Below are positions 11,488 to 56,328 of a DNA stretch of 64,000 nucleotides, one piece after another. Position 1 is the first letter of the stretch. Each line of letters starts with the position of its first letter. Source of the DNA: Antedon mediterranea (Eukaryota; Animalia; Echinodermata); contig NC_092672.1 of NCBI RefSeq assembly GCF_964355755.1, positions 11,904,001 to 11,968,000 on the forward strand, read 5' to 3'. The notes beneath the pieces were generated by a model. The model saw nothing but the letters and a program-made list of their open reading frames with translations, was not told where the DNA came from and made no database searches. The translations under genes were made by a program, and so were the position numbers.

Positions 11488-12017
11488 CTAAGCATTATAT
11501 TCTAACTTTTCAGCAGGAACAGTCATGTTATTCTCCTTTAAAAATGCAATAAATGATTGCAAGTTATCCTCCCTTAGAATCCCCCTTTGTTCAAGATCTA
11601 ATATCACAGTCCATTGGTTGTTACTTTGTTTTTTTAGAACACTTTTCAAACGGATGAGATCTCTTGTATTTTCTTTCGAAAGTGCGTCACCAAACTGAAT
11701 TAGGTGTTGTCGATATGTTGAGAAGGATGTGATACACTGGTTGGTTTTATCAAATGTCTCCTTTAACAGTTTGTTGACCTCCAAAACACCATTGGTACTA
11801 GTGACATTAATTGCGTCAATAAGAACTTTCACGTTGGTAGTGGTAACATTGCCAGATCGTTTCAATAAGTTGAAGAAATCTATGCAGTCAGCATTCTGTA
11901 GATCATTGTAAGGTGTTATCAGATCTTTGCATAACACCTTCAGTTTATCAAGAGAGCCATGTTCATCATACCAGCTCGAAACGTTTACCACGATTTTTTC
12001 AAACTCTTCAGATGATC
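11488..12017 (-). CDS. Terminal exon: two tandem death effector domain-like units
   Basis: Patterns FEKIVVNVS...LDKLKVLCKDLI...DFFNLLKRSGNVTTTNVKVL and FSTYRQHLIQFGDALSKEN...ILDLEQRGILREDNLQSF match the DED consensus (YRxLLxxIxxxLxxxD...FxxLExxGxIxxDNL). Confidence 0.8.
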
Positions 12018-18000: not shown

Positions 18001-21000
18001 TCACTTATATGCCTGTATAAACTCCACAGTTTAACAAGTACTACTTTTTTTTTTTTTTTTTTTTTTTTTAATTATTATTTTTTTCTTTATATTAATAATA
18101 ATAAAACAATAATATAAACAACACTCCTATGAAGTTATAGTGTGATAATTTTGTGTTTCTTTCAGTATCAGCATGTATAATACACTACATTAATTTATTA
18201 TTTACATTAAGTTGGTTTATTTACTTTTTTTAAGAAAAGAAATTACTATTTTAGATCTTGTCATGCAATTAATTTGTTGTTTATTAATTCGTGCGAGGAC
18301 TTGTTAGGCCTATTACTATTAGTAAAGTGATTATATGCGAAACGACCACACTTTACTTATGCAAAATGATCGTCAAAAATATTTAAAAATTAATCAAACC
18401 TTCCACTGAAGACACAGAGTCAGAAGATATAGAACATTCGAAATCAGATATTGAATATGTTGAAACTGCACCTTGTAAATGGAATTTGGTTTCAGTTGAC
18501 GTTTGTTTTTCCATCTTTGCTGTGATGTGTTCATGCGTTTTCTGGGATGTTCCTGCAATTCATTATAATATATTTTTGATACAATATATAGAATGTCTAA
18601 CATTTCACTTTTATGTATGTTTCTAAACTGTATGAGTGCATCTTAACTTGATTATGATCACATATACAGTTTGTTTAGAATATTAAAAATACCCTTGTAA
18701 TAGAAATTGTAGTAGATAGTCAGGCAGCATTTGTCACTATATTAACTTTACTTCATATATTTAGCCAAGTTTGATTTTTCACTTTTAAGTTATCAAGGAC
18801 ATCACAAGAAACAACTTCCAACTTGTTGTCCAATTTCTAAACGCGTTTTTCATTCGCTGGGGGCGCTTTTTCAAAATGGCCGCCTATGCTATCAAGTACT
18901 TATATTTCGGCAACCACTAATCGTAGAGACTTGGTTTTAGTCTTAAAATGTTCGTAAGGTACATACTTCTATTCACTATAATGGAACATTTTGCCCTAAA
19001 ATGACCGGAAATACTATTTCTGACCATTTGACCTTTGACCTGATCTTATCATATCTCAATAACTATTGGTCAGAAAGAGTTGACATTTATCCCAAATTGT
19101 TCAGAAAATACATGTTTCTAATTGCTTTAATGCAAAGGTTTGTTTCAAGATGGCCGGAAAAACCATATCTGACCTTTGACCATAACCTGTGTGATATCTA
19201 CAACATGTTGGTTATAGATAACATTTTTCGACAGATTGCTCAGAACATCCATATTTGTAACACATTATTGATTTTTCAATTATTGATGCTTTAAATCATT
19301 CACTTAAGCTTGGAAATTAAAGTTTTAAAATAAATAAAAGCCACTCATTATCTCCATACATAATCCTAGCCTGTGATTGGCTGAAAGTTCAAGCAGATTA
19401 GATTTCATGAGGTTAAATGGTAAGTGTTTTTTAAACCGATTTAAACAGTGTTTGCTGGGAAATCATACTTATTATTAGTACATAGGCCTATACATTTACT
19501 TGTATAATAATGTACCTATGCTGATATAAATGTTGTACAGAGAGGCCTTAGTTAAATAGTTATAAACTATAGTTCCAGCCTAGGCCTTGTCGCTAACACC
19601 TAGCAAACAATGCTAGCCTGGTGAGATCCCCGTGGAACTCAGTGACAAGCCAACTCAGTGCCTGGCATGGTAACCTCCGATGATGTCAGTCAAACGATTG
19701 AAAAGCGAGACCAATTAGGAAAAGAAGCATTGGATAAATTTGTGACTTCACGAATGGTTGAAAAAACCGTAACATTTTGAGACCCTCAAAAGAAAAACAA
19801 CTTCTCTTATTTCAAGCATGTAGGAGCAGTGGTGAAAACCAAAATTAAAGGTCAACTAGTTTCAATTAAGCAAGAGAGAAAGCTGCTGTCTAGATTGTTA
19901 GTTGTGGCGAAGAGCAGGCCAGAGTTCGCTCTAAAGGATGTCATAGGCAACTATGAGTTCAATAGCACTCCACCATCAAATTTCCATCCAGATGGAAGAA
20001 TGATAATGCTTTCTGGAAAATCCAAGGTATTGCAGTCAATAACAGAACTCCCTCTACCAGATAATGTCAGCAGGCCTGTACAGAAAGATGATAAAAAGCA
20101 GCATCAATCCTAATTATTGCTGGCATGTGTGTCGTCAATATGGTAAAAAAGGTGTCTGATAAGTTCAATACTTCTGACTTTGCATCTGAATTTGTTAACC
20201 TGATTGTTGGTATGAGCAAACCATATGATGAAGTTCGTCTTTTATTTGATCAATATCTATCAGGATCTTTAAAAGAATCTACACGAGATAAGAGAACACA
20301 GAAAACAACTACCATTCACTACCATGTCAATGACAACACTGAGATTAAGAACATTAAGACATTTTTATCGCACAAAGAGACCAAAGCTGAACTTACAAAA
20401 TATCTGTCAGAGAAGATACCTAATCTCTTCAAGAACAACACGAAGAAGGTCCTAGTAACACATCACACGTCCATGATGGCAAACTGCAATCTCTCAGAAG
20501 TTATCATGATGCCAGAGATGACACACGGACAACACACATTGGAAGAAGGGGACCAACTGGTCTTATTGTATGCCTTTGATTGTATGAACAAAGACCCAAG
20601 TGCCAATGTTGACATATTTTCTGTAGATACTGATGTCTTTATCCTTTTAACAGGAAGCTATCCTCTACTTCCTCCAATGACCACATTTTGTAGGAAAAGA
20701 GGGGAAAAAATACCTATATGGGAATGCTATTACCGACTTTGAAAACAAATATCAGCAGCACTGATTGGATGGTACGCATTTAAAGGTACAGATAACACAG
20801 GTACATTTGCTTGAAAAGGAGTGTCCGCCCATTTCAAAGCACTTTTGAAATGTGACGATGAAATACTAGATGCATATGCTGTATATGGACTGACCTCTGA
20901 AATACCAAATTGGATTTTCAGGCAAATGGAAAGATATGTTTGCATACTATACAGTACTTCTAAGATCAAGGCAGATTATGTCACAGACTTGAGATGGATG

Positions 21001-24000
21001 TTATTTGCACAGAAAGGCAAGGAAGGACAACAATTACCTCCAACCATGGGAACTCTTAGATCACATGTGGAAAGAGCATACTACATGTCTATTGTATGGA
21101 ATTCATCATGCAAGCCAACTCCATCTATTCCACCAGCAACTGACTACTCCTGGCAACTAGAAGATGGTCACTTGAAGCCGGTATTTTGCAACAATCCACA
21201 AGCACCAAAAGCTCTTCTAGAAATTCGTCGATGTACCTCCAATGGTTCATGTTCAACAAATCGCTGTAGTTGTAAGAAAAACAACTTGCTCTGTACTGAT
21301 GCATGTGAGTGTGGTGATGGATGTAAGAATACAAAGGACTGGAATGTAGAGCTAGTAGACAATATCGATGAACTTTATTGACTGGAGAGGGTAATCTGAC
21401 TATATTCAATATTTATGGTATCTATTTATTTATTATAACAGTTCCATTGGTGATTTGAAAAATTGATTTTGGAACAAGGGATATCATCAACAAAACCACA
21501 AGTACCGGTAAAAGTTATAAACAATACTAGACAAATCTATAGTCTCTCAGTTGTGGATATTACATGCATTAGGGCAAGAGGTCAGATATGGCATTTCTGT
21601 TTGCTTTAAAACAAAACATTTAATTACAGTAAATATAAAAAGGCATACTGCGAACAATTTGAAACAAATTTTAAGTCTGTGTGACCATTAGTTACCGAGA
21701 TATGATGATAGAAGGTCAAAGGTCAAATGGTCAGAAATGGCATTTTCAGTCATTTCTGGTCAAAATATTGGATTAGAGTAAATAGAAATATGTACCTTGC
21801 AAACATTTTAAGATTAAAACCAAGTCTCTACGATTAGTGGTTGCCGAGATATAAGTACTTGATAGCATAAGCGGCCATTTTGAAAAAGTGCCCCCAGCGA
21901 ATGAAAAACGCGTTTAGAATTTGGACAACAAGTTGGAAGTTGTTCGTTGTGATGTCCTTGATCACTTAAAAGTGAAAAATCAAACTTGGCTAAATATATG
22001 AAGTAAAATACAAATGCTGCCTGACTAAGATATTCATCATACCTATTTTTACTGGATCCACAGAAGAGATTGCTGATGATTCCAGTTGGGAATCAGATTT
22101 AGATGTTGACATATCTGAACTTCCTTCACCATCATCCATTTCTTCCTTTATTAACTGTGTTGCAAGTTTTTCTGCAAGTGCATCTTCTCGTATTTTCTTG
22201 TTGAGCTCCATAACTGTTTAAAAAAAAGGTGAAATAAGATTGTACGATAAACATCATAGAGATAAATAAAAATACTAAAATTACAGAAATGAGATACATC
22301 ATCATATCATCATCATCACCTGTAAAATACAATATGTAGGTAATTTATGTAATTATAGACCCAAATGCATTTTTAAGTATTTGATAAAAATATTATTTCC
22401 AGTGTACCTTACCGGTACGTTTTTACCTTTATTATGATACTAATTAATCTCTATACACAAATTGGCCAAAGCAGGCAATTATGCGTTTGTTGAAGGAAGA
22501 AGAAAGAGAGAGTTTCTCTCTTTTGTGAGGACAGCTCACTTTGAACGAACAGTTAATGTGTTATTTGGTATGGTTGAATTCTTCTTTTCAAACTTACCGT
22601 CGATATCTTCCTTCTTCCACTTGTCACACTCTTTTCCAATTGCTTGAAACAATGTCGTTGTGATAGCAATACCATCAGTAGATGGTTCGTTGGATTTAAA
22701 TCTATAATAATGAATAATGAACTCTAAAAGGTCGGATTTAATGAAAGGAGAATGTATCCAATAGTTCATCTTAAAATATTGATATATTTAAAATAAAAAC
22801 GAAGTGAAGATCACAAGTAAATAAGCATATGCTTCACACCTCTTGGGGATATTTAAAACAAACTGAAACTTTCAGCAGCAGAATTTGCATAAACATCGTC
22901 GTCACCATCACCGTCTATGTCACCATCATCGTCATTATCATCATAATTGCCATTATAATCATCATCATTTTTATTATTCGAAAAGGAATGAAAACCCGTT
23001 ATTCAAAGACGAAACTTCATGTATCAACTATTTAAAATAAGAACCTCAATAATGCCAATTTTTGTATTTTATTGAATAATTAAATTAAAATACTCAGCAC
23101 CAAACTTATTATAAACAAGAAATCCAAACAACTCGTTAAATGTTGTCAATTGCATTAGAGATACTTATGAAAAAAAGATAAAGTTTTTTAAATGGTTCAA
23201 AGAACAAAAGATTGATTTTAATATATTTTTTGATAAGGAATGTTATGCCATGACTATTATAGAGAACATGAATACAGGATTAGAAATAAATGAGAACTTA
23301 ATCTACTGTAATGGTAAAAACACCATTCAAATTGTATTATAAATACTTTATATTGATGAAGATCATGTATTTTTTATTGGTGCATCTTATAAAATAACTT
23401 TGTTTTTGTGTTACCTTTGTCCAAGCATGGCCTTTACACAGCTAGTTTTTCCAGCACCTTCTTTCCCGAGAAACATACATCTTGAATTTACAACTGCAAT
23501 CTCACCATTTTCAAGTTCATTTTGAAATGATCTAATTGCGCTCTTACCTCTAGCTAATATTTCAACTGGAACTAAATTGCGATTAAAATAAATGTAAAAT
23601 ATACAAAAACAAATGTACACATACAAATATTTTACATTTAAGAATCAATTCAGAGCCAGAGTTTTAAAACTGTCATTATGACAGCTCATCTTCTTCACAT
23701 TCATACAGTTCAAAGGTTCAGTACAGTGTTCAATATGTGTCATTAGTAATACACAGTTTAATATTCATGATGCAAAAACTCAAGAAAAGTGTATTAATAC
23801 AAACTTACTGTCAAGTAACTTCAATATCTTGTTTTTCTTTTCTTTGGAGATATCATCATTATCCTTCAAAACAGATGCTGGTGTTTGACCTCGCTATACA
23901 AAAAATGTATTAAAGTATTATCCACTGTTACTTTACTAATCTATAGATATACACATTTAAGTAAGGGAAACAATCAGTAAATCGTCCCTTACTTCTATAA

Positions 24001-27000
24001 TTTTTACTCGATGGTATATAAAGTTGGTTCGTACTTTCGGTACTGATTTTAACCACCTTATGTAACTCTGTTTACTAATTAAATTGAGTTAGATAATTAT
24101 TTATTGACGATTAAAGCAAATTTACGATTTGCCCCGAATAGGTTTTTTTCACAAATTGTTTTACATTATATAAACACATATACAAATAAACTTTATTACT
24201 GACAGTTGCTTCTCAACGTTTGTATTAATTAATAATGTAATTACAAAAAAAAAATATAAACGTCGTAGTGTGTATCGTTACATGTACTGTACTGTACATA
24301 CTTCAATCGACTATGACGGTGACAGTTTCAACAAAGTATTAAATCGCAATGTTTTAATGTATTTAGTGATATATTATTTGTAAAACATGAAAACAATCCT
24401 CTTTTCCATCCCTCAACCCTAATGTTACATACACAACACAAATTAAGTTTGTTTAAACTTGACTCAAACAATTGGTCTCATTTTGTGACAAGTTTCTCTT
24501 TCGGAAGTAATTCACAGGGTGCTAATTTTAGTTGAGTACATAAATCACCGTTTTTATTTATTCGTTATTGTAAATAAATGACATTGTCCTGTGGTACGTA
24601 CATTTGAAATCGCCAGTTTTTAGTCGCGTGGACGCAATAGTTCACTAGCCTATGTCGGTCGGTCGGTCTGTCTGTCTGTCGGTCCGGTATCACTATGCGT
24701 TTTATCGCTTTTCTGTACTTTTTGAACTGTTTTGATGTTTTTTCTGAGAGCACTCGACTTATGGCTGTTGGCCTTGTTTAACGCTGAAATTACTATGTAT
24801 TCGAGAAGCATCTGTGGACAACTTAGATGCGAGCGAAGCGAGTAAACTAGTAATTTACATAATCCGGATTGTAATAAACACATGCATAAGTTAATAGTGT
24901 GCACACGTTAATATGACACTATCTGAGTACCTTTGCACTAACAAACAAAATAGTAACTGCTCTACCATTTAATGTTTATTGTGATTGAATACACTTAGTC
25001 TTTAAAAATCTCTCAAAAGCCACATTTTGAATTTTTAATTTTCTAAATTGTTCTGTCTATGTAAAGCGCATTAAGGCTTTCAGCATAATGCGCAATATCA
25101 AGCACCAGTTATTATTATTATTATTAAAAATGCTATTAAAAAAAATATTATAAAAGAATAGTCGATACTGTATTAAATGTAGGCCTACATGTTAATTATC
25201 GCATCTATGAGAATTTACCACCACTAGCAGTAACTCGTGCTCCGCATGGTCTTCGTCGGCTTTAACATATGGTTATATTATACTAATTCGCATGGGATGA
25301 GTAAGTATCATATAAGCCCACTCTTCCCTCATAAAAAGCCATGGATGTTGTTATACACCAAGTATTCCTTCACTTTTAAGTAACTTCGAGCTACAAAATG
25401 AAAGCCTAATATTGGATATGGGACTTTACGAAAATGGACAAATTGTACTGTGTGAATAAGATGATGCGCGCAATAACATAACGAAAGTATAAAATGGTGA
25501 ACTATATTATTTTGGGTGTTTTTCGTGGTGTATTAATTATTTGATACATTGAAATAAATCAAAAAGTGAACAAAAATCGAACGGAATAGAAAGTGCATGA
25601 GATTAAAACATTTTAATGAAGTATTGGAATAAATCAACACAAAAAGTAGTAGCGCTCGGGGTGTATTTTTTATTTTTTTACTTTTTTTTTGTTCATTTAC
25701 ACTTTTTTTATTTCATGGTTTATTATATTTTGATTTTTTGTGTGTGTGAGTGAGGTTTCGTAACCCTTTTGCTAGTTTTGCAATTAGATTATAATATTGA
25801 GGTCTAGGTTTGATTTTTAGCTTTAAGCATGTCGTGGATTCGAACTCGAACGTACTAAACATGGGTACCAATGGTCACGGCGATTTCTCACTGAGCCATA
25901 CCGTGATTTACAAAAATCATGCTGTTCAAACAATAGGTGTAATTAACGACGCGATTATTCGATACGGTTGACTAAAGACTGGTGTTTTGGCGGCCTGGCA
26001 TGGTATTTGTAGATCCGGCCATGGCGGTACACAAAGAGGAGGATGCGTAGTTTATACAGTGACGTAACACGGTCCCTGGGACGTAAAATGACTCCTATTT
26101 TTGCCGTTTTAAGTGTTTATCCTTAAAATTCAGGAAAGTGACATAGCCTATCGAGTGCGGCCCATCAATAAACATCAGTGTGCCAAATGTGAGCACGCAC
26201 CGTTCAGTGGTTTTAGAAGAGATACATAAACATAATAAACAAAATAGTAGCATTAATATAGATGCTAACATACGGTAATGGCTTTAAACATTTGGCGCCT
26301 TTTCTGATATTATTTGGCTCCATCAAGACAATGATTACTGTGTATTAGTTAACAAAAGATTTGTAATATTTTAAGTTGATAGAAACTCCTAATTAAAATA
26401 AGAGTATACCTTGGATATAGGCGTAATGGTTTGCTTAATAAGCACAATTTAAAAATGCAAATGCAATGTTGCTGCATTAATTGACTGTACCTTGTTTCTT
26501 GCTTTAAGTGATGCTCCATGGGCTATGAGACTGTTCACTATTTCTATATTACCACTCCTGCCAGTCCTAACGTGTTCATGTAGCGGTGTGTTTCCCACCT
26601 GGAAAGCAGAAAGTTGTATGTATAATAATATACATTTTACACTTTAGATACTAGAACTAAGGTTTAAACAAATTTAATATGTATTCGTTCTGCTCCTACA
26701 ATTATAACAAGCAATTAACTACTACATCTAATGTATATTTTGCTTCTCGTGGGCTACTCGTCTTTCAGTAGTAACTTCGATGATCATCCCTGCCAAATCG
26801 CCAGGACTTGTCTGGCGTGTGTAGGCGACTATACAAGTACAATTATTTAACCTCTGGTGGCAACGAAATGCGTCTGCCAGGTGGACAGCCGGGAATGAGT
26901 CCAACGGATGTAAAGCATATATGTCTATCGGTTATAGATTGAAAGTTAGATGATAAATCTGAATTAGGGTAATAAATTGACTTCAGTAATGTAAACGGGG

Positions 27001-30000
27001 TCCCATCGTTTTATTACTTTTTATGAAATCATACACATAAGCGCCATTATTCGTTCGGCATCATAGTCCGCAAGGTCTATGGTCAAGAAATTGTTAAGTA
27101 AATGGAGTATGTTGTTAATTGTCTACGATAAACCACAGTATAACAGTAACTGTAAATAATACAACTAGTTGATTTCAATTGGGACGTGGAGAGGTGTTAG
27201 CAATGGACATTATTTTGAAAGTATTGGTATTAACGTCTTGTTAAATGCGTGTCTGTGTAGCGGTGTGTTTCCATCCTGGAAAGAAGAAAGTTAGATTAAA
27301 CTTGACGCATTTTTTTAAAGAATACAGGTATTATTATATTACATATTTTCCTTTTCTATAATCATTTATTAGTCCATTGAGGGTGACTGTAAATTATAAT
27401 ATTAAGACCTGGTATTAAGAAAATAATATAACTTTCTGATTTTAATTATTATAATACAGAATGCTTAGTACTGAACACATTTTAAAAGTATTAATTTAGC
27501 GTCTTGTTCGATCTAAAACGTTACAGCTACACGATATTTAATATATTTGAAATTATATTTTTGCTTTGATAATAACTATACATTTATCCAATGAAAACAC
27601 ATTAAACGAACCTAGGGTTTGCTTATAACGGGAGATAATGTAAATTAACTTGTAGTGTTAACTAATACGAATAATTACGTTAATGATTTTTAAATCAATT
27701 TAAAAGAGTAATTTACATTGTTTGTTGCTGTGATTGATGCTCCGTTGGCTATGAGACTGTTCACTGTCTCTACATTACCACGGCCAAGCCGAAAGTGTCT
27801 ATGTAGCGGTGTGTCTCCATTCTGGAAAGAAGAAAGTTAGATTAAACTTGACGCATTTTTTTTAAGAATACAAGTATTATTATATTACATATTTATCCTT
27901 TTCTACATACATTTTGTAATTATTTAATAGTGACTGTAAATTATAATAAGGTAATAAGAAAATAATAAGAAAATAATACAATTTGCTGAGTTTAATTATT
28001 ATAATACAGATGGGTTAGCATTGAACACATTTTAAGAAAATAATAATACAACTTGTACTATACCCTGGAAAGAAGAAAGTTAGATTAAACTTGACACATT
28101 TTTTTTAAAGAATGCAGGTAGTATTATATTACATATTTATCCTTTTCTATATTTCATTTTGTAGTTTATTGAGAGTGACTGTATTATAAAGAAGACATGG
28201 TTTTAAGAAAATGCTACAGCTACACGATTTTCAATATAATTGTATTTTGCTTTGATAACAACTATACATTTTCCAATGAAAAACACATTAAACGAATCTA
28301 GGGTTTGCCACTGATCACCAACTGGGCCCTCTGGGAGACCAGTCTTTGACTGAAGAGGTTACCCAGTATAAATATAAATTTCAATTCAAATTCAAAATTC
28401 ATATAACGGGAGATAATGTAAATTCACTTGTAGTGTTAACTAATTACGAATAATTACGTTAATGATTTTTAAATCACTGTAAAAGAGTAATTTACATTGT
28501 TTGTTGCTGTGATTAATGCTCCGTGAGCTATGAGACTGTTCACTATTTCTACGTTACCATCGCCAAACTTAACGTGTTCATGTAGTGGTGTATTTCCCTC
28601 CTGGAAAGAAGAAAGTTAGATTAAACTTGACGCATTTTTTTAAAGATTTTAATTACTATAATACAGAAGGGTTAGCAATGAACACATGTTAAAAGTATTG
28701 ATTTAGCGTCTTGTTCAATCTAAAATGCTACAGCTACACTATTTTTAATATATTTTAAATTGTATTTTTGCTTTGATAATAACTATACAATGTTTCCAAT
28801 GAAAAACACATTAAACGAATCTAGGGTTTGTTTATAACGGGAGATAATGTAAATTAACTTGTAGTGTTAACTAATACGAATAATTACGTTATTGATTTTT
28901 AAATCATTGTAAAAGAGTAATTTACATTGTTTGTTGCTGTGATTAATGCTCCATGGGCTATGAGACTGTTCACTATCTCTACATTACCACAGCCATACCT
29001 AACGTGTCCATGTAGCGGTGTGTTTCCATCCTGGAAAAAAGAAAGTTAGTATTATTATATTACATATTTATCCTTTTCTACATTCATTTTGTAATTCATT
29101 GAGTAAGAGTGAATGTAAACACCCAATTCTGTAGCTGTGGAAGTGTGGAAGACTGTCGACACTCTACCAGAGACCTATCTGACTATATTAAGTACTGTAC
29201 CTTTAATACACGATATCGCTGTCATTAATACAGTCAGATAGGTCTCTGGTAGACTGTCGACAGTCTTCCACACTGAGTGTACTAACAGCTACAGAATCGG
29301 GTGATATAAATTATAAAGAAATACCATGGTATTAAGAAAATAATAACTAACTGATTTCAATTAAGAAATGCAGAGGATTTTGCAATGAACATCATTTTGA
29401 AAGTATTGATTTTAGCGTCTTGTTAAATGATGTTTAAAATAATTTTAAATTATAATTATCTTACTTTGATAACAAAAATATTACTTGTGTTTCACAATGA
29501 AAAACAAATTATACAAATACAGGGTTGGTTTATACGTTAGCTCATTTATATTAACTATTGAGTGGGTTCAAGTCCCGTCACATGTCAGGATTTTTTCTAA
29601 GGACCAAATTACTTCACTCCCAAAGACTTGTAATAAGACTTTGTTTATGTAGAGCATCTTGTGTATGTTTGTCTTGTGAACCTCTGAGGGTCCCTAATGA
29701 TCAGCAATAGCTGGATGGATCACCCTCATTAAATATGGTGTTAAAAAAAATTAATACGGACAATAACGTTAATAATATTAATTCATTAATTTAGTAATTA
29801 ACATTCATTTTGTAATTCATTAATAGTGACTGTAAACTGTAAAGAAAACACCTGATAGTAAGAAAATAATACAACTAGCTGATTTTAACTTAGACGTGCA
29901 GATGTGTTACCAATGAACATTTAAAAGCTGATTTTAACTTAGACGTGCAGAAGTGTTTAGCAATGAACATTTAAAAGCAGATTTTAACTTTGAACATGTA

Positions 30001-33000
30001 CAGTAGATGTGTTAGCAATGAACATACATTTGAAAGTATTGATGTTAGCGTCTTGTTTAATCTAAAATTTGACAGCTGTACATGGTATTTAAATATCGTA
30101 ATTTTTATGGTGATATAGTTAATAACTATAATTAATTTAATTATTATTATTATTTAATAAAGGACGTTTAATTTATCATTTTATTACAAAATGTAATGAC
30201 AAAAATAGAGATGGCCGACCAATTTGGTGCTTAGTGAACTTAATATTATTATTTTGTATACTTGATCTTGAAAATGGTTCTATGATGCTACCGGTTTGCT
30301 TAAAACGAGAGCTGACTAAAATTAACTTTTTAACTACTACGAATTATAAAGTCACTGATTTTTAAGTAATAATAAATCTCTGTCTACGCTACCAAACTCT
30401 ATCAATAAAGCATCACATGAAATGTGACTGAACGATATCATTAGTGGAAAGGACACCAACTTGCGGGAAGCGATCCAGCACATCACCTTTTAAGCCTGGT
30501 TTCCAGTCGGCGTAAGACCTGCTTCTGTTTCCGATTGAGCCATTTTCTTACGATAACGCTTGCCTTCCGATCAGTTGACCAAAAACTAAGGTGGACAAAA
30601 AATGATCATGACCGCGTTGGACCGCAAAGATTAAGATGACGTTAGGTCGAGTTGAAATGTTTTCCTGCTTTTACGATGCATGACACGGTTAACATTACAA
30701 GAATTTATTTATGATTGCCTATAAAATTCCGTAGGTAAATGGCATCTTTTGAAATGAAGTGCCTAACAAAACTGGACCCGCAAGGATTTACACAGTACAT
30801 ACGGTAATTAAATTGTGATAGTCGCCGACAAAATTTAATCTTGTTGCTGACAATTTGTTTCATGATTTTACCCGGTTTTGAATTCCTCTTTTTCACACGT
30901 GGCTAATTGAAATGATACAAACATCAAATGATCCTATACATTTCGTTTAAATTCAAGTAAACTTTGTGAATACTGAATGTATTTATCAAACCGCCTTCAA
31001 AAAATAATTGCGAATTCTACCAATACACTCTACGGTGAATTCACTAAATATTGTTTATATTATTAATCTATTATCTATCCCACCTTCATTCTACAATGAA
31101 AAAAGAAAATATATTACGTAATTCGGGTGAACGGTTTTTAAATATTTGTTGCTTTTGTATTTTATCCTATGGGTGTCGTACTGTCTGCATTTTACCCATT
31201 TTATCATATTTTTACTATATTTATATAATAAGTGACAAGAAGGACAATTTATTTTACATTTCTCAGAGCTATTTGGTATTTCATCATTATTACATTTATC
31301 ACGAATTAAAATATTGTGGTTTAGAGCCTAAATAGATAGTTATTGTCAAATATTCTCATATACAGTACTTTGCCTCTTTGTGCTGTATTTCCCCATTCCA
31401 AGCTGTGCTTGCCAACGCCGCATAATTCACCCCCGTCAGTGATCGGCTGGTTTTTACGATCCATTGTTGGGTTTACGCTTCCGAAAGCAGTGACTTCAAG
31501 TCATGTGCATCTACAGTTATCAGTTATCACCAATGTCCGCGTTTCTGTTCTTTCTCTTTATTTTCCAGTTATATGCATTTTATATATTTTATTTGTTGCT
31601 TGTATTTTAAAAGATACTAATAGATATAGATGAGAACTGAGCTAAGAAGAACTATTTTAGGTTCTATTTGTTCGATTTATGATCCATTTAGTTTCGCAGC
31701 TCCTGTACATTACAGGAAAGTTTTACAGGCTATGTGCAAGCAGAATTTACACTTAGACGAACCGTTAGCATCTGAATTACGGACCAGTTGGTTAATTTCT
31801 TTCGTTCCTTTGAATGATCCAAGAAACACTTATTATTATGGTCTTTGGCCGAAATAATATAGGCCTAGGCCTAGGCCTACGTGTGCCGGTGCCAACCCGA
31901 GGTAAGGTCAATAAAGATACACACTATATGACATTTCGGAAACTATTCTTTATTAGTGTACTTTCTTACAATCCGGTGAAAACTAGAAAGAAATGCAACA
32001 CAACAGGATTAAATAAAACCTACAACGTTGCCAGTGTAGCATAGCAAAAAGCTATACAAAACAGCCTTTTTGCTACACATTTCTACAATTGTGTAGCAAA
32101 AAATACAATACAAAACTATGTTTCTTGACTAAAAAATCAGTTTGATTAGCAATTTTGCTAAACAAAATTTTCAAATGAAATTTTCCAATGTACACATATA
32201 CGGAGTATAAGGGCCTCACAATTTGGCTAGCCTCTAGGGCTAGTACGGCTAAAATGCTCGTTTAACTATCAAATAACAAATAAACAAGTAACAAAATCTG
32301 TCTCACCCCATTTGGCCAGTGTCATAACAAACTTTTTGGAATAACAATAAATGCGTTAAAATTGAATCAAACAACAATACTAACAAACTACTAGGCCTAT
32401 TTATCAACTGTGAGATTTAAATGCATGCTTGAGTTGAGAGCAAGCAAAACCGTCAACAACAATGTATTTCGTCTCTTTCCCTCTAGCTTGCCGCAAAGAT
32501 CTTATATACTAAAGATGTGACACTACCCGCGTTTACGCGTAACACTTTAGAAGCGTCAAATTATAGTGCGCCCCCTCGCTTAAACAAGTAACGAACTTTT
32601 GCGTGACGATCGCAGTATTCTTTAGGGATTGAGTATTCGCGCCAAAGTTTGTATGGTTAACAAACAATGAATTAAAAGAGAAAAAGTGGAGGGATGTACT
32701 GTGCTGCAATTAATTGTAAGACAAGAACAGGTAAATTTATGTAATTAAATAAGTAGCCTATACATCTTAACATATGCTATGTAGGGACTAACCTTACTTT
32801 ACTGTATTCAATTTATACATATATTAATAAACTAGGCTAGGTAGGCCTATTATTAATAATTATTATTTAAACGTAGGTATGAAATGATTATTATTATCAT
32901 TATTAGGCTACTACTAGTACATTAATTATATAACAGTGAACTTACACTAATTTCTTCACTGTTCCCTGGTTATATTACTTTATCCTTTAAAATTTAGTAC

Positions 33001-36000
33001 CTTAAACAACTTTTAAAACTTTCAATACAAGAAGCATGTATTGACCAAATATTATATCATTACAATTGTTGGCATATTATAAGTAAAAATTTGGTCGAAA
33101 GACTACAAGAAGCCCAATTGGCATGTCGCTGTAGTCCCTCTTTTTACATTATACAAATAATAATAATAATAATACTTAATATAAACAAATTGTGATCTTA
33201 ATTATTTTATGCTTTCCGTCTCATGGTTAATATTTGCTTTCTGTCTCATGGTTATTTTATTTTGTTTAATTTAACTAGCCGTTACGTATATTACAGTATA
33301 TTAACGCATGGAATGATTATTATTATCATTATTAGGCTAGGACATTAGTTATAATAACAGTGAAATTACACTATTTTTATTGTTCCCTGGTTATATTACT
33401 TATCCGTTGAGTAGCCCTAACAAACAATTTTTAATTGAATCTTATACTTAATATTTATGAAATTCAACCGTTAGTTAGTTAGTGGTTTTAAGTTAGGCTT
33501 AAGTATTTGACTTTAGGCCCTAACCAACTTGAAAATCAATTAGCATGCACGCAGACGTCCTATAATTACGTAAACGTTAATTATGATAAAGCAAAAACTC
33601 ACTGGACAATTATTAATTTACAGGTGTGCAAAATGGGCCCAGAACACACGACGCGCGGATTTGAGAAGGAAACCAAGTTCCTATTTACACCGTAATTGCC
33701 ACTTGATTTCGAGTAATCTCAAATAGTGATGGTCACAGGCAGACTAAATCAAGATTGCATTGAGAACTTATTTTCTATTGTCAGAGGGAGAGGGGGTCAT
33801 CGCTATAACCCGATGGTAGATGAATTTAGAGCCTCCCTGAAGGAAGTTATGTTCAACAGGATGTTGTTCCGTTAGGGGAATTCGAATTGCCTAGAAGACA
33901 CTGATCGAAAGTACAGCTAAATGGAATTGATGCAATAATGATGACCCAATCATCATCATTATCATCAACGCCACAATCGCATCATGTTGCCGATCAAGAA
34001 GACAACGATGCCACCACTGACGACGACTGCTGCTTAGACTTTGAGATGACTCTACTTATACTTTAGTATAATTATGTATAGCCGATTACGTCGTCAAGAA
34101 AGTAAGTGTAAAGCACAACTGCGATATCTGTAACAGTGCAATGCGAGAAACCAATCGAAAACTGGAAGACCCAAAGCAGTTCCTAAAACATTTTAAGTCT
34201 TATATGCCCATCAACCAGTACCGACTTCGGAGGATTAATTATGCCTACTGACAATGTAGTTAATGTCCTATCTATATGTGAAAAGATTTTTGTTTCTAAC
34301 TTTAACAAATACTTATACATACATCAAACATCATCAGAAAAATAAAGTTAAAAATCGCTACCATGTTACATAGATTTGGTATGAAGTTGAATGTTTGTTC
34401 ACCAGCAATTGAAACATTGCTAATTGAAACATAAGTAAACCTACGCATATTCTATGCTGTTAAATTCTTCAACAGAGACATAATCAGAAGAAGAAGAGTA
34501 ACAAATTTACATTTCTTAGGTATGGTAAAGTTGTAGGAGGTCTGTACGCGCCCCGGTCTGTGCATTATCGGCTAGAAATGATGATCATTACGACGGTCTG
34601 GTATGATGAATAATTGTAAATATGATGATTTTAATTCAATGTTTCTACATTTTTTATATTTCCTCTCGGTGGCCCGTGCATCATTTCGCAATAGTTATTG
34701 AGTTAATTTAAAACTGAGACTACTATAACATAACTAATTGTTATCTCGGGTTTTAAATAAATTATAATAATAAATGAATGTCATGGCGAATGATGGGTAC
34801 ATAATACAGTAGGCCTAGTATGAATTATCTCAGAATTGACTATCATAATCTGTTTCATATCATGCCTGTAGGCTTAAGCCTATGATTGTTTATAAATATA
34901 TTCCGAAAAATTACTGCAATAAAATAGTCGAAGTAGTGATTTTAAAAAGTGACTTGTTCTTTTTTAATTGGCAAGGGTTCGAGGCCGACTCGCTCCTAGT
35001 TCTGGTGGTGGAACAAGTCTTCTCGGATAAGGACTATAAACCGTAGGTCCAGTGTACACAGTTATAACCTGTGTGTACTTTAAAGAACCCAGTTCATTAT
35101 TCGAAAAAGAGTAGGGGGTTACCCCGGTGAACTGGTTTACACAATAGCTTCTGTATCAGGGGGATTACCACCTATCTGATAGGACAGTGATTAATTCACT
35201 ATTGGTAATCCTTGGCCACATTGCCTAAAGACATAAAGTAAAATAAATAAATAATAAAATTGTTTATAACACACTATTTGACTAATATATTTTCCTAATC
35301 TGCACTGTTTTGCTGCTGGATGAAAAAGAAGAACACATCAAGAACAAAAACGGAATACGATGCGCTTAGTGTTAATACCAGAGCCGACTCGCATAAATAA
35401 GTAGTAGTGCGGATGAGAGTGATGATTACTCCTAGATGATAATTTTTGAGGATGATAAACATTCAATAATAACAACAATATTCAGTAATTAAAACAAATA
35501 GAGATATACAAAGTACAGGAAATAAGTCTATCATTATAATTTAATCGCACATTACCGCAATTATTGTGATGAAAAAAATTGAGTATTCAGTTACAATACA
35601 GTAGACATATCTGATCCATAAATCTACTTGTTTGAGCGAGAGGGCGCCCTATAAAATGAGCTCCATGTGTGTTACATGAATTGCACGTGAAATTCCGAGA
35701 GTGTCCCATCTTTAGTAGACTTGCCCCAAGTCTGTATTTATTGTCTTTATTTTTATTTATTTGTTTTTATTTCGACCGCGATAAAATACAACTCAAGTAA
35801 TACACGTATGAAACGCCATATGTGCAAACATATTTATATTTTTACAAAACTCCGTCTGGAGCCCAGACTACATCTTTAGTATTATAAGATCTTTGCTTGC
35901 CGTTAAATAATTATTGAGGGGGTAGTTTCAATAAACTTTGACGCAGACGGCAAACATACAATGTATAGAGTGCGTTTAAAAATATTTTCTGAGCTTAGTA

Positions 36001-39000
36001 ATGAGATCAGTATTTGTAGTAGACATAAGGACAATATATTTTAATTTAGATGGATTATTTGTGTAAGAGGAAAACATATACTTAGTTCTACTATCTGAAT
36101 AAACTAAAGGGAATTTATCTTCAATTGATTGTAGAGAGCATAATTTTCATAGTCTATCATTTCTATTAGGCCTAATACGATTCCATCTTCCTTTTTCTAG
36201 TTATAATATTCTTAGTCTTAGTTTAGTCACAATGTGTCTTTGTTTGTAATTTTAATTAAGTATTCTTCCGTTCCAACATAATTTATATTGATTGCTTGTG
36301 AAATATTGGAGCTTATAGAGAGTGTAACCTATTATCTCATAGAATTGTGTCGTTCAATAAGCCTCGCCTTTGTTTAAATTTTGAAATAAAAAATATTGTT
36401 GACCTGTTGAGCATGCCATGTTGCCAAATCCATTTATAGGCCTACATAATAAGTTTTACATCATTCACCCAAATCACTCATTTTGTTGCGCTTTTCTATG
36501 TTGAAAATCGTAAAATTGTTTAATGATTTTTTCATAATCTATTTGGCTTACTCTCAGCCACTAACGAATTCAATTAATGATACTTTGAGTTTGGATAGGG
36601 AATTCTCGATATTCTCCTCTCACTGCATCACTTGGTGCAAAATTTTCTATTCCTAAAAGATATTTTTATTCTAAAATCAAAATAATATAATCCAAGTGGT
36701 ATGAAGACATTGTTCATCTGCTGGAAAACTACAAGTCAGTCGATGCTACAAACCACAAGGGTTCGGAGAAGTCAAGCAGGCAGAAATGCATTTTATCTCA
36801 GATGCTAGTGAAGTAGTATGTGGTCAATGCACGTATTTAAGATTGATGCCCTCATGATAATATTTCTTCTTTTTCGATATCAAGTGTATGTAGCTAACCG
36901 GGTATACAACAAATCAACGACGTACCTTCCATAGAAAACATCTTCTAATCCGAGTGATATAGTCAGTAGAGCCGTGCGTGCTAACAGTAAGCAATTGATT
37001 TCACATACCGGATAGGTGAGTAGTTCTACACTTCTTCACCAGTAGGTAGTTCTTAACAAACAAAGGCGGTTGGCCAAAATCGATGACTAATCGCGTATAA
37101 GGTTGTTGCTTCAGAACTAAAATATATTCGCTCATTCCACACTAATGTTGACAAAGTTGCTTCAGAATGGTTTTATGACAGATAAAATGAACTATAAATC
37201 ACATTAAATGTATTGAATGTTCATTCGCCTTAGAGGAACCAACACGTAGTAAGGCATACTTTTTAGATATGCCTATCAAAGGTAAACTTAACAGTGATAT
37301 AAGACAACAAAACACATGCAGTAATTTAATATGAAAAGATTGGTGTAAATATTGCGAGGAGCCATGTACCGGCAGTATGTGTAACTGAGTTAATGATTAT
37401 GTAATTGTTGTTGAAGATATGCTCATCGGGAATAATTTGCATAAAATACCATGTTAGCCTACGTATATTAGAAATCTCACTAGCTAGTGTAGTTAGTTGA
37501 GACGATGCTATCGTCAGCTGCACCATTTTAAATATATTTTAAATTGTAGTTTTGCTTTGATAATAAATGATTTTAATTATTATAATACAGAAGGGTTAGC
37601 AATGAACACATTTTAAAAATACTAATTTAGGCTCTTGTTCAATCTAAAACGCTACAGCTACACAATTTTAATATATTTTAAATTGTATTTTTCCTTTGAT
37701 AATAACTATACACTTTTCCAAAGAAAAACACATTAAACAAATCTAGGATTTGCTTATAACGGGAGATAATTCAAATAATTACGCTATGGATTTTTAAATA
37801 ATTGTATAAGAGTAATTTACATTGTTTGTTGCTGTGACTGAGGCTCCGTTGGCTATGAGACTGTTGACTATCTTTACATTACTCCTGCCAGACTCAACGT
37901 GTTCATGTAGCGGTGTGTTTCCATACTGGAAAGAAGAAAGTTAGTATTATTATATTTCATATTTTTCTTTTCTACATTCATTTTCTAATTCATTAAGAGG
38001 GAATGTAAATTAAATAGAAATACCTGGTATTAAGAAAATAATGACTAACTGATTTCAATTAAGACATGCAGATTATTTAGCATTGATCATTTTAAAAGTA
38101 TTGATTTTAGCATCTTGTTTAATCGAAAATTCGACAGCTGTACATGATGTTTAAATATCGTAAATTATATGGTGATGGTTAATAACTTTAAATAATATAA
38201 TTTATTAAATTAATAAACATATTCCTACGCCTAGACATCTCGTTTAGATTCAAGTAAACTTTCATGAATACTGAATTTGTAGATCTGTATGTATTTACCA
38301 AACCGCCTTCAAAACATAATTGCAAATTCCAACAATACACTCTACGGTGAATTCAATAAATATTTTGTTATCTATATATAAATTTACGTAAGGGCAAAAT
38401 TCGGTAAATCGCGCCTTACTTCTAGAATTTTTACTCGATGGTATATAAAGTTGGTTCATACTTTCGGTACTGATTTTAACCACCTGATGTAACCCTGTTT
38501 ACTAATTAAATTGAGTTAGATAATTAGTTATTGACGATTAAAACGAATTTAGGTTCAACGATTTGCCCCAAATAGGGGTGTTTTCCGATCGGGGTATACA
38601 CTGTCTAATGGATGTCCAACTTGAAAAATACCCGCACACAATAATACGAGGACGCTTCGCATTTTCCTATCTCCTCCTACGAAAATTGTTTTTAATAGCT
38701 GAAAACCGGTTGAACTGCTCGAGTACAGCATCATAATGTTGAAGACAGGCCGATTTTCTTTAAAAAATACTATTTTGATAGATTTAATTGACGTTTTTAC
38801 AAATGTATTGATTTGCGATGAATGGAACATTCCAATCTCTCAGTCTGCCAGTTTGGTTTAACACAAGTAGGTAAATTTATGAGCCCTTGGAAAATAAACT
38901 TACAATACTTTGACAATACAGTACTGCAAATACCTATTAACCATTTTTGGTCGTCATTTGAATCGAACATTTCTTACTGTGAATACTGTTAGATGTACAA

Positions 39001-42000: not shown

Positions 42001-42376
42001 CTCCCTTGAGTTTACCGTAAACATGGTTATGATTTATATCATATTCACATTCAAATAAATATAGTTTCTATACCTTATCTACGGAGTTCACAAGATGTGG
42101 ATATGTTTTACATATTTCTTCAATTTCTTCCAAATTTCCATATCTTACAGCTCTTTGCAATACGTTTCTGAAAAAAAAAGAAGATAAAAATAAATCATGG
42201 CTAGAATACTCGGTCGATGATGTTAATATGTTTATTTGTCATGTTTCTAAACAATGATAAATACAATTTTTCTTTGAACTCTTTATAATATTAAAAATTT
42301 GTTGGATATAAAATGTAAAGCTTACTTCTCCATTTAAAAAATGCAGTCAGTTTGAAGAAATAACTTACTCATCCAT
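11488..42376 (-). CDS. Multi-exon gene (25 coding exons, 3813 nt CDS, ~1270 aa): ankyrin repeat - Roc GTPase - COR - tandem DED protein (ROCO family, no kinase)
   Basis: Manual splicing with GT..AG introns and matching phases gives one open frame from ATG 42376 to TAG 11488. Motifs: GxTPLH ankyrin repeats, P-loop GKEGAGKT, switch I STDGI, IWDYAGQ, LVATHMD, COR motifs VPLKWL and ALTYLNDIGAI, and two DED-like helical bundles. The start codon and any further 5' exons are not proven. Confidence 0.85.
12659..12697 (-). CDS. Linker micro-exon (RSCVEPATLHYR)
   Basis: 39 nt, phase 1-1, strong acceptor ttttcattttcag, gtagct donor. Confidence 0.6.
13247..13327 (-). CDS. Linker exon (EQITAVTEREREKTFETCISSTTEIT)
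   Basis: 81 nt, phase 1-1, ttttacag/gtatgt. Confidence 0.7.
13498..13702 (-). CDS. Exon: COR end with Cys/His cluster (CTVC..HHLH..C..C)
   Basis: 205 nt, phase 0 to 1, canonical sites. Confidence 0.82.
13792..13896 (-). CDS. Exon: COR-B (LEIYRLR...PSVCME)
   Basis: 105 nt, phase 0-0, canonical sites. Confidence 0.8.
14151..14453 (-). CDS. Exon: COR-B (FLVPC...FLPDAVYHTLVV)
   Basis: 303 nt, phase 0-0; COR xxVP and P...xxLV motifs. Confidence 0.88.
14916..15062 (-). CDS. Exon: COR (WNKLSEKGILEEKLLRYLW...MKEFRLL)
   Basis: 147 nt, phase 0-0; GIL...LW...MxxFxL COR motif. Confidence 0.88.
15166..15360 (-). CDS. Exon: COR-A (ECGI...ALTYLNDIGAIMY...LENTVI)
   Basis: 195 nt, phase 0-0; LxxLxDxGxI COR motif; not in the ORF track. 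Confidence 0.88.
15981..16226 (-). CDS. Exon: Roc end/COR start (VDNT...GIKQLR...VPLKWL)
   Basis: 246 nt, phase 0-0; PxxW COR-entry motif. Confidence 0.88.
16413..16604 (-). CDS. Exon: Roc G4 region (FWIRSI...PPICLVATHMD)
   Basis: WxxSI and PxxLVxTHxD Roc motifs; 192 nt, phase 0-0. Confidence 0.88.
16719..16808 (-). CDS. Exon: Roc (FFLTNRVSYCVAFNACDNLDEP)
   Basis: Continues the H-xFLT motif; 90 nt, phase 0-0. Confidence 0.85.
17177..17388 (-). CDS. Exon: Roc switch II (IWDYAGQLDYYITH)
   Basis: WDxAGQ Roc motif; phase 1 to 0. Confidence 0.9.
17734..17901 (-). CDS. Exon: Roc insert 3 (NSRFKQTQRIFEEAVVEEI...AVESA)
   Basis: 168 nt, phase 1-1, gtaagg donor. Confidence 0.78.
18400..18552 (-). 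CDS. Exon: Roc insert 2, Ser/Thr-rich (TSQKTHEHITAK...SDSVSSVE)
   Basis: 153 nt, phase 1-1, ttgcag acceptor, gtttga donor; the frame differs from the ORF-track call. Confidence 0.7.
18717..22027 (+). mobile_element. Academ-type (AcademX-like) DNA transposon, internally deleted and degenerate
   Basis: Termini TAGTCAGGCAGCATTTGT...ACAAATGCTGCCTGACTA, imperfect TIRs of roughly 450-500 bp, 3-bp TSD AGA (18714-16 and 22028-30); internal ORF fragments carry XPG/PIN-like motifs and a C-terminal Cys cluster. Confidence 0.85.
19640..21381 (+). pseudogene. Disrupted Academ protein C-terminal half (XPG/FEN-like nuclease plus Cys-rich zinc finger)
   Basis: ORFs 19829-20113, 20125-20742 and 20821-21381 are separated by stops/frameshifts; motifs EEGDQ..SVDTDVF, GTDNTG.F, LPPT..H..RA.Y...W, CSTNRCSCKKNNLLCTDACEC. 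Confidence 0.8.
22043..22213 (-). CDS. Exon: Roc insert 1 (MELNKKIREDALAEKL...SSVDPVKI)
   Basis: 171 nt, phase 1-1, open frame, canonical splice sites. Confidence 0.8.
22598..22701 (-). CDS. Exon: Roc switch I (FKSNEPSTDGIAI)
   Basis: STxGI Roc motif; phase 2 to 1; gtaagt donor. Confidence 0.88.
23415..23571 (-). CDS. Exon: start of Roc domain with P-loop (PVEILARG...MFLGKEGAGKTSCVKAMLGQ)
   Basis: Walker A GxxxxGKT preceded by a PxEIxARG motif typical of invertebrate Roc domains; phase 1 to 2. Confidence 0.9.
23809..23893 (-). CDS. Exon: C-terminal capping ankyrin repeat/linker (RGQTPASVLKDNDDISKEKKNKILKLLD)
   Basis: 85 nt, phase 0 to 1, GQTP motif, gtaagt donor. Confidence 0.8.
23940..24850 (+). 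mobile_element. Non-autonomous Helitron, copy 1, carrying a nested repeat at about 24617-24780
   Basis: a|TCTATA start; ends GCGAGCGAAGCGAG..CTAG|t; long homology to 38371-39662. Confidence 0.75.
25223..26263 (+). mobile_element. Helitron/Helentron-like non-autonomous element containing a tRNA-like segment
   Basis: ACTAG terminus with adjacent imperfect hairpin, ATTAATATAGAT at the other end, tRNA B-box-like segment (ggattcgaac) at about 25835; boundaries approximate. Confidence 0.5.
26491..26598 (-). CDS. Ankyrin cassette exon (VGNTPLHEHVRTGRSGNIEIVNSLIAHGASLKARNK)
   Basis: 108 nt, phase 0-0, ttccag acceptor, gtacag donor. Confidence 0.85.
27247..27275 (-). pseudogene. Truncated ankyrin cassette exon (DGNTPLHRH...), 3' part and donor deleted
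   Basis: Intact paralogous acceptor region followed by about 29 nt of exon that runs into paralogous intron sequence and reaches TAA about 12 codons later. Confidence 0.75.
27717..27821 (-). CDS. Ankyrin cassette exon (NGDTPLHRHFRLGRGNVETVNSLIANGASITATNN)
   Basis: 105 nt, phase 0-0, intact splice sites. Confidence 0.85.
28300..28400 (+). mobile_element. SINE 3' fragment inserted in an ankyrin-cassette intron
   Basis: Absent from paralogous introns (gggtttgcttataacggg); ends in an (AATTC)n-like tail. Confidence 0.6.
28496..28600 (-). CDS. Ankyrin cassette exon (EGNTPLHEHVKFGDGNVEIVNSLIAHGALITATNN)
   Basis: 105 nt, phase 0-0, intact splice sites. Confidence 0.85.
28926..29030 (-). CDS. Ankyrin cassette exon (DGNTPLHGHVRYGCGNVEIVNSLIAHGALITATNN)
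   Basis: 105 nt, phase 0-0, intact splice sites. Confidence 0.85.
29120..29303. mobile_element. Foldback MITE (CACCC...GGGTG)
   Basis: Near-perfect inverted arms of about 70 bp (agtgtggaagactgtcgaca/ctaccagagacctatctgact and their reverse complements); absent from paralogous introns. Confidence 0.75.
29535..29750 (+). mobile_element. tRNA-derived SINE
   Basis: tagctca A-box remnant, B-box gggttcaagtccc, A-rich tail. Confidence 0.6.
31630..31800 (+). mobile_element. Old BEL/Pao pol fragment
   Basis: RRTILGSICSIYDPFSFAAP...DEPL...W is homologous to TRRGILSVVASVYDPLGLITP in the intact BEL in this window. Confidence 0.7.
34970..35260 (+). mobile_element. tRNA-derived SINE with Deu-type core, nested in the P element
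   Basis: B-box gggttcgagg; core taaaccgtaggtcc...taaagaaccc...ttcgaaaaagagtaggggg..ccccggtg; (TAAA)n tail. Confidence 0.7.
35716..35870. mobile_element. 155-bp non-autonomous element (AcademH-like) inserted in the P element right TIR
   Basis: TAGAC...GACTA termini, a hairpin at each end (agactt..aagtct; gtctgg..ccagac), 9-bp TSD CATCTTTAG. Confidence 0.7.
36690..36970 (+). mobile_element. Old BEL/Pao RNase H fragment (duplicated at about 41190-41500)
   Basis: Translates to RCYKPQGFGEV...MHFISDAS...CTYLR. Confidence 0.7.
37821..37925 (-). CDS. Ankyrin cassette exon (YGNTPLHEHVESGRSNVKIVNSLIANGASVTATNN)
   Basis: 105 nt, phase 0-0, ttccag acceptor, gtaaat donor, GxTPLH...LIxxGA ankyrin consensus. 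Confidence 0.85.
38371..39662 (+). mobile_element. Non-autonomous Helitron, copy 2
   Basis: a|TC start, 3' hairpin GATGGTACGC..GCGTACCATC then CTAG|t, no TSD; the empty paralogous site is visible at about 31050-31070. Confidence 0.85.
42074..42167 (-). CDS. Exon: N-terminal capping ankyrin repeat (NVLQRAVRYGNLEEIEEICKTYPHLVNSVDK)
   Basis: Poly-T acceptor and gtata donor; phase 2 to 0; ankyrin-like LxxAVxxGNLE motif. Confidence 0.8.
42369..42376 (-). CDS. Exon 1 coding part (ATG GAT GA) of a 22-nt exon, 42369-42390
   Basis: Acceptor tttttcag and donor gtaagt; the phase-2 end fits the next exon (MDENVLQ). The frame upstream of the ATG is open, so coding could start further 5'. Confidence 0.6.
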
Positions 42377-50637: not shown

Positions 50638-50738
50638 CACCGGCCCCTAAAGGCGCCACTAACCAGCCTTTACAAATTCAAACAATAAGCTTGAGTTACA
50701 CTAACAAAGATTAAATAAATGTTCATAAAGTTCATATC

Positions 50739-56305: not shown

Positions 56306-56328
56306 TCACAAAGATTTAAAACTTAAAA

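Follow-up and report, generated by a model that had tools for sequence, protein, structure and literature searches.

Within a 64,000-nucleotide (nt) stretch of the genome of the feather star Antedon mediterranea (contig NC_092672.1, positions 11,904,001 to 11,968,000; hereafter the window, in whose own coordinates all features are given), we distinguished a ROCO gene with five ankyrin repeats, each encoded by an exon of its own (A1 to A5), in which codons 1, 8, 11, 12 and 14 are very probably under diversifying selection. Splice sites read by hand gave an open frame of 1,270 codons in 25 exons on the minus strand (42376 to 11488), with canonical splice sites throughout; the gene extends far past the range 26491..37925 assigned to it in a first-pass annotation, made by a model from the DNA letters. 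The gene is composed of the following modules: (i) an N-cap, (ii) five one-repeat ankyrin exons, (iii) a C-cap, (iv) a Roc GTPase domain, (v) a COR domain, (vi) a linker and (vii) a probable pair of death effector domains (DEDs) (Table 1). Residues 175-1270 of the model are identical (100%) to RefSeq protein XP_071943867.1 (P0001) of A. mediterranea, found as a 100% match in a search with one COR exon. Judged from its sequence, the gene is likely to be spliced as in the 25-exon model.

The ankyrin exon array

A six-frame motif scan of the window revealed five intact ankyrin repeats and one broken repeat, all on the minus strand. The first-pass annotation had proposed five phase-0 exons of 105-108 nt with one ankyrin repeat each, and the splice ends, phases and Pfam scores agree with it: A1-A5 have AG/GT ends, are in phase 0 on both sides and free of stops, and each of them alone scores above the Pfam Ank cut-off (25.1-28.1 bits versus 21.1). 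Nucleotide sequence identity between the exons ranges from 80 to 89%. The repeats are 35-36 residues long and, compared with designed ankyrins, have two residues inserted between the helices; 12 of 35 positions, including TPLH and the helix-2 core, are invariant across all 12 repeats of the window gene and its paralogues.

Between A2 and A3 replacement changes occur only in codons 1, 8, 11, 12 and 14, and silent differences at codons 3, 5, 16, 18, 25 and 26, so that the later codons differ only silently, exactly as had been claimed for this pair. The clean pattern is the best pair and not the rule, because each of the other nine exon pairs also has 2 to 8 framework codons changed. Silent sites differ by 24% between A2 and A3 (proportion of silent differences, pS, 0.24) and their downstream introns by 4%; A3 may carry a conversion tract from elsewhere, for a test of which the four-way site patterns are too few.

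The predicted fixed cap exons were also recovered, the N-cap being confirmed by the model of a second protein, XP_071944626.1 (P0027), which shares the N-cap and continues with six repeats built on the same scaffold, the C-cap and the start of Roc. P0027 is encoded on the same 38.96-Mb sequence as the window gene and is identical to it at 166 of 170 positions just downstream of the array; the two have no ankyrin repeat in common. It is either a paralogue or a second haplotype of the window gene and, to go by their register, its repeats are presumably encoded one per exon as well. Since the N-cap ends and the C-cap starts in phase 0, any subset of the five ankyrin exons is in frame; this is arithmetic, and no evidence that subsets occur. 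The donors of the array exons match the consensus at 6-7 of 9 positions and the other donors of the gene at 6-8 of 9. Weak donors, considered as a hint of regulated skipping, were rejected, as the array donors score like the rest, and this comparison of donor strength within the gene gave no sign of regulated exon skipping.

Signal of diversifying selection at five codons

Variable sites were picked from seven repeats of paralogous proteins (six from P0027 and a terminal one from P0024) using one threshold, not tuned, of at least four residues per site. The sites being taken from paralogues, circularity is avoided in the tests on the window exons. The threshold returned codons 1, 8, 11, 12 and 14 exactly, the same five that the first-pass annotation had named. 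In pairs of window exons the proportion of replacement differences (pN) at these codons is 0.46-0.72, compared with 0.00-0.13 for the framework, 0.08-0.29 for silent sites and 0.04-0.12 for flanking introns, and all six pairs with an intron control are significant (P <= 0.0013; the pairs are not independent). Among A1-A4, the 10 first and second positions of these codons carry 14 changes and the 159 intron columns 29 (ratio 7.7, P 1e-7), and the rate at the variable codons exceeds that at third positions (10 changes at 35; ratio 4.9, P 1.4e-4); restricting the control to codons 1-14 gives P 0.002. When each codon is counted once, 13 changes are observed versus 1.8 expected. The third positions of the five variable codons show 2 changes at 5 sites.

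Codon models, run in our own implementation on the five exons with one A5 codon dropped for alignment, favored M2a over M1a (p 3e-5 with F3x4 and 1.7e-4 with F1x4), with a dN/dS ratio (omega) of 8-12. The posterior exceeded 0.95 for codons 1, 11, 12 and 14, and for codon 8 was just 0.68 in one run. The fixed-site tests, on A1-A4 without A5, gave omega 11-12 (p about 1e-6) under all three topologies, and none of 149 simulations under the null, which allowed for rate variation and block recombination, attained the observed value. The model comparison, the fixed-site omega and the intron comparison thus bear out the earlier claim of diversifying selection at the named codons.

An alternative explanation is that exons were duplicated in tandem in the ordinary way and that constraint on surface residues was relaxed, the selection signal coming from small numbers, conversion tracts or multi-base mutations; it is highly improbable and largely refuted already. 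Relaxed constraint predicts the intron rate, which the observed rate exceeds 7.7 times; the five variable codons have few third-position changes (2 at 5), the per-codon count is 13 versus 1.8, the sites were chosen from other genes, and nulls with recombination never attain the observed value. Such an explanation would nevertheless draw on the small size of the sample (just five sequences of 35 codons), on the difference between pS (0.24) and intron divergence (0.04) for A2-A3 as a sign of conversion, and on the general variability of ankyrin surface positions (PMC4308713).

Predicted fold and binding face

The array of P0027 (residues 1-274) was modelled as a capped stack of helix-loop-helix repeats (predicted local distance difference test, pLDDT, 89.5), which together with the Ank profile matches is what an ankyrin array should give, and which superimposes on a designed ankyrin repeat protein (DARPin) with Z 30.1 and a root-mean-square deviation of 1.7 over 255 residues. 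Helix 1 holds codons 8, 11 and 12 (spaced i, i+3 and i+4), codon 1 precedes the GxTPLH motif, and codon 14 falls in the loop after helix 1, inside the two-residue insertion that is not present in DARPins. The ANK-N5C library randomises positions 2, 3, 5, 10, 13 and 33, which form a continuous surface of beta-turn and helix 1 (PMC4308713). Codons 1, 8 and 11 map to library positions 3, 10 and 13, and codon 12 to position 14, which is variable among solved DARPins; the mapping is based on alignment and secondary structure and not on solvent exposure. Four of the five hot sites thereby fall among seven of 35 designed-ankyrin positions, for which the naive chance of 0.003 overstates the case, because buried sites cannot vary.

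The structure model, the DARPin alignment and the library positions support the earlier placement of the named codons on the predicted ankyrin binding face. The label "natural DARPin", used in the first-pass annotation, applies in part: the capped array, the constant scaffold and the variable positions 3, 10, 13 and 14 (codons 1, 8, 11 and 12) agree with DARPins and the ANK-N5C library (PMC4308713), whereas the feather-star array is natural, the window repeats hardly vary at library positions 2, 5 and 33, and the fifth hot site lies in the loop insertion. A scaffold with a lengthened, variable inter-helix loop would represent a natural variation on the DARPin binding surface.

Growth of the array

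Exons A2, A3 and A4 lie within units measuring 430 to 1,200 nt, with flanks in common, and the intron upstream of A2 copies the intron upstream of A1 collinearly over several kilobases. Two dead cassettes were identified (Table 1), and no further intact or degraded cassettes were found within the window. The shared flanks, the collinear intron copy and the dead cassettes indicate repeated duplication and loss of intron-plus-exon units. The gain and loss of exons over evolutionary time, as earlier proposed, is thus borne out by the two relics and by the five repeats here versus six in P0027. The flanks of A5 are unlike those of the other array exons, and A5 looks like a dedicated last repeat.

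Merging of haplotypes or paralogues into a false array during assembly is hardly credible, even though the 38.96-Mb sequence also carries near-identical paralogue models. Divergence between the copies is 11-20% in exons and 4-12% in introns, the duplications are nested and of different size and accompanied by dead relics, and an independent locus (P0027) has the same array.

Two further features of the introns were recorded. The intron before the C-cap (23947-24842) shares segments of 75-88% identity with the intron before A1 (38374-39650), a likeness that may reflect a shared mobile element or the trace of an older duplication. Directly upstream of A2 (29120-29303) there is a short palindromic insert with 50-nt arms of 96% identity, resembling a miniature inverted-repeat transposable element.

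Roc-COR module and C-terminal region

P0001 contains a Roc domain (Pfam, 41.2 bits versus a cut-off of 27), directly followed by COR-A (55.6 bits versus 35.3), and the G1-G4 motifs are located at model residues 274, 298, 547 and 639. By these domain tests on its sequence, the predicted product is a ROCO protein. The last exon yielded a structure model with pLDDT 76.6, and all 25 Foldseek matches listed were tandem DED entries of caspase-8, cFLIP or vFLIP (TM score 0.46-0.66). A C-terminal tandem DED of the caspase-8/cFLIP type is therefore predicted as likely, but not secure. The ankyrin-Roc-COR-DED architecture named in the first-pass annotation is supported by Pfam for Roc and COR-A and by the Foldseek matches for the DEDs, the Pfam DED call being a sub-threshold one.

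The Roc domain (22213-17177) is split by a low-complexity insertion of about 230 residues spread over four exons; in the paralogues P0005 and P0010 the insert is much shorter. One Roc intron (18747-22007) carries 473-nt inverted arms (83%) flanking broken open reading frames (ORFs), with a cysteine-rich stretch at the end. Its three ORFs have no Pfam match, and the element is probably a DNA transposon remnant.

Table 1. Coordinates and characteristics of the exons, dead cassettes and duplicated intron of the ankyrin-Roc-COR-DED gene in the window.
Feature	Position	Strand	Remarks
Micro-exon with the first coding bases (ATG, 8 nt) and an upstream acceptor	42369..42376	-	Matching residues open P0027
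N-cap exon, phase 0 at its end	42074..42167	-	29/34 identical to P0027 N-cap
Ankyrin exon A1, 105 nt, phase 0-0	37821..37925	-	
Intron upstream of A2	29304..37264	.	Collinear duplicate of the intron upstream of A1 (37934-41744), ~75-92% in pieces
Ankyrin exon A2, 105 nt, phase 0-0	28926..29030	-	
Ankyrin exon A3, 105 nt, phase 0-0	28496..28600	-	
Dead cassette	28064..28240	-	Acceptor and upstream intron flank kept, exon body gone
Ankyrin exon A4, 105 nt, phase 0-0	27717..27821	-	First part used out of frame by RefSeq P0001
Dead cassette	27249..27275	-	Acceptor intact and codons 1-9 retained, followed by unrelated sequence and a stop
Terminal ankyrin exon A5, 108 nt, phase 0-0, own flanks	26491..26598	-	In P0001
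C-cap exon, phase 0 at its start	23809..23893	-	In P0001
Nine exons: Roc GTPase with long insertion (G1-G4 motifs) and start of COR	15981..23571	-	Pfam Roc on P0001
Five COR-region exons	13498..15360	-	Pfam COR-A on P0001
Two short linker exons	12659..13327	-	In P0001
Last exon: predicted tandem DEDs and stop	11488..12017	-	Pfam DED, structure model, Foldseek

Paralogues and the gene family

Of 46 candidates in the COR search, 22 proteins were hits: four belong to Anneissia japonica and the other 18 to Antedon, where they are spread over four large sequences. A tree was built for 15 of 26 proteins, namely those from which the core stretch could be cut; in it the window gene grouped with P0002 and P0024 (100/100) and was separate both from the Anneissia proteins and from the group of P0005. 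P0005 represents a second subfamily, with eight repeats of 37-38 residues (with a long loop) on a constant scaffold of their own, varying mostly at codons 11-15.

A word search with the 35-residue scaffold gave one match among four candidates. Against 1.84 billion representatives, a profile search placed P0027 first, far ahead of the rest and as the sole close match; the remaining matches, some of which were inspected, scored via many ordinary repeats. When the P0005 array was used as the query, the best 120 of 373 matches were mostly generic ankyrin proteins.

The crinoid paralogues P0003, P0006, P0005 and P0018 swap their C-terminal parts, the variants being a second Roc-COR unit, ZU5 after the DEDs, or long proline-rich tandem repeats ahead of the C-terminus. 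Internally similar repeats also occur in P0028 (Haliotis rufescens) and P0046 (Lingula anatina), of caspase-nSTAND3-ankyrin and ankyrin-TIR architecture, and vary mainly at the two residues preceding the helix-1 glycine. Many marine invertebrates may possess immune-domain proteins with variable-face ankyrin arrays.

Comparison with known systems

In vertebrates, exons of 99 nt are frequent in ankyrin genes. Ankyrins seldom duplicate by single repeats (PMC1553488). A close parallel in exon organization is that of brown-algal ROCO genes, proposed as immune receptors, with one leucine-rich repeat (LRR) per exon, exon shuffling and positive selection on the concave face (PMC3341825, Zambounis et al., 2012; PMC11378527, Teng et al., 2024). 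Shared features are (i) a Roc-COR core behind a repeat array, (ii) one repeat per exon of the same phase, (iii) exon gain and loss, and (iv) positive selection on the binding (concave) face. The algal exons are 72 nt long and in phase 2, whereas the ankyrin exons of the feather star are of 105/108 nt and in phase 0; the algal proteins are described as LRR-ROC-COR only, whereas the feather-star gene, in an animal, adds a predicted C-terminal DED pair. Alternative splicing of repeat exons is reported on the algal side alone (PMC11378527). The feather-star gene works like the brown-algal ROCO receptors but is no member of that group.

Fungal NLRs contain near-identical ankyrin repeats with repeat-number polymorphism and five positively selected positions on the binding face (PMC4986451, Dyrka et al., 2014), mostly in the inner helix and beta-hairpin. 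The window gene resembles them in the location of the selected positions, in number variation and in a (here predicted) cell-death output; repeat-number variation (five repeats in the window gene versus six in P0027) coincides with concave-face selection, as in the fungal receptors. It differs in having Roc-COR in place of a NACHT or NB-ARC switch, neither of which Pfam detects in P0001, and in repeats that are N-terminal and each an exon of its own. Internally conserved repeats of the fungal type make up 0.8% in metazoans (PMC4986451), and the internal repeat identity of P0027 (0.81, by our own measure) is slightly below the 85% threshold of that study. The principle of a variable-face ankyrin array is not new, as it was already described for fungal NLRs in the same work.

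ROCO fusions with TIR or death domains (DDs) are known from Aplysia and sea anemones, and a diversifying one-repeat exon array is not described for animal ROCO fusions in the excerpts of these reports (PMC9334734, PMC5094078). The window gene shares with DAPK1 and the invertebrate fusions the presence, in one chain, of ankyrin or leucine-rich repeats, Roc-COR and a death-fold domain, and departs from them in lacking a kinase and in having a predicted DED pair in place of a DD or TIR domain. DAPK1 has an N-terminal kinase domain; no kinase match was found by Pfam in P0001 or P0027, which places the gene outside the DAPK1 family. No crinoid or other animal family of one-repeat-exon ankyrin ROCO genes was found in the literature searched, which covered few subscription journals and no supplements. 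What is new is the combination of ankyrin cassettes, Roc-COR and DED in a deuterostome, with selection measured against the gene's own introns.

If expressed as modelled, the gene would extend to an animal a design known in brown algae and fungi, and would supply the study of echinoderm immunity with a concrete and testable receptor family, intracellular and variable. To our knowledge, the role of ROCO proteins outside LRRK2 and DAPK1 is largely open, and the same gene, again if expressed as modelled, would offer a clear sensor-switch-effector case for these proteins.

Proposed function

On balance, we propose that the crinoid ankyrin-Roc-COR-DED gene encodes an intracellular non-self sensor, diversified in the germ line, whose binding-face codons are under selection; by analogy, a defence or non-self role as such appears reasonably probable. 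Unequal crossing-over and conversion between similar flanks would add, delete and mix cassettes, and selection would keep new residues at the beta-turn tip, on the exposed face of helix 1 and in the lengthened inter-helix loop. The five exons would be spliced in series between the caps, and a ligand held in the ankyrin groove would, in keeping with known ROCO biology, switch the Roc-COR module. The clustered DEDs may then recruit a DED adaptor or a caspase-8-like protease, leading to cell death or inflammatory signalling. Recombination and selection, whose effects are visible in the array, are the cause that we infer for the renewal of the binding face.

Several observations count against this proposal. 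The tie to immunity comes from architecture and analogy alone. The DNA tests of selection concern five exons of one gene, the paralogue proteins having served for the choice of sites alone, and against silent sites alone six of the 10 exon pairs (not independent of each other) are significant and four are not. The framework is under weak purifying selection (omega 0.39-0.49, p 0.04), which does not reach significance in comparison with introns (ratio 0.73, P 0.28) or with third positions (P 0.13). The Pfam DED match in the last exon (E 9.7e-8) lies below the cut-off, and the best Foldseek E-value for that exon is a weak 0.015. RefSeq P0001 starts at an out-of-frame ATG in A4 and lacks A1-A3, so that four of the five exons are omitted, and P0024 keeps just the terminal repeat, starting in sequence homologous to the intron before A5. 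Given these two models, the annotation does not show the array to be spliced at the window locus.

Our reading of the RefSeq model is that of an annotation made without reads across the array, with which low expression, multi-mapping and silence fit equally. At the sister locus, the annotation of P0027 joins the full array (although the basis of that model may not be RNA). The retention of the terminal repeat only in P0001 and P0024 suits an alternative in which A1-A4 were once selected and are now unspliced or decaying, as a pseudogene-like 5' end or a conversion reservoir, the terminal repeat or nothing being expressed. The two dead cassettes, the framework omega of 0.39-0.49 and the mobile-element remnants within the introns point the same way. 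We nevertheless consider this alternative unlikely: frame, length and splice sites are kept in all five exons, though the introns carry many indels, the donors are as good as the other donors of the gene, the complete 1,270-codon frame is open, and P0027 is annotated with the full array.

The gene may also be expressed and its selection real, with a partner other than a pathogen, such as a gamete, a selfish genetic element, a symbiont, or another individual or cell in self/non-self recognition. Allorecognition is the role of fungal receptors whose repeats follow the same pattern (PMC4986451), and nothing in the analysis links the gene to infection; a GTPase that is intracellular, carries DEDs and belongs to a lineage-specific expansion, on the other hand, fits the defence systems of marine invertebrates (PMC8195603, PMC9334734), and a non-pathogen partner appears to us improbable. 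The broader reading, of an ankyrin-based system of variable intracellular receptors in crinoids, in which a ROCO-DED multigene family exchanges one-repeat exons between loci by recombination and also skips or rearranges them inside one animal, is doubtful to a similar degree. If it were true, the binding surfaces coupled to a caspase-8-type death switch would differ between cells or individuals, giving a deuterostome an intracellular equivalent of the diversity of Dscam or of the lamprey variable lymphocyte receptors.

Other elements in the window

Two retrotransposons were identified outside the gene. A BEL/Pao long terminal repeat retrotransposon (49821-56628) is bounded by two identical 300-nt repeats, which makes it a very recent insertion, and its polyprotein is split into two frames near 51900. 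A non-LTR retrotransposon (59674-62802, minus strand) encodes an endonuclease and a reverse transcriptase in more than one frame.

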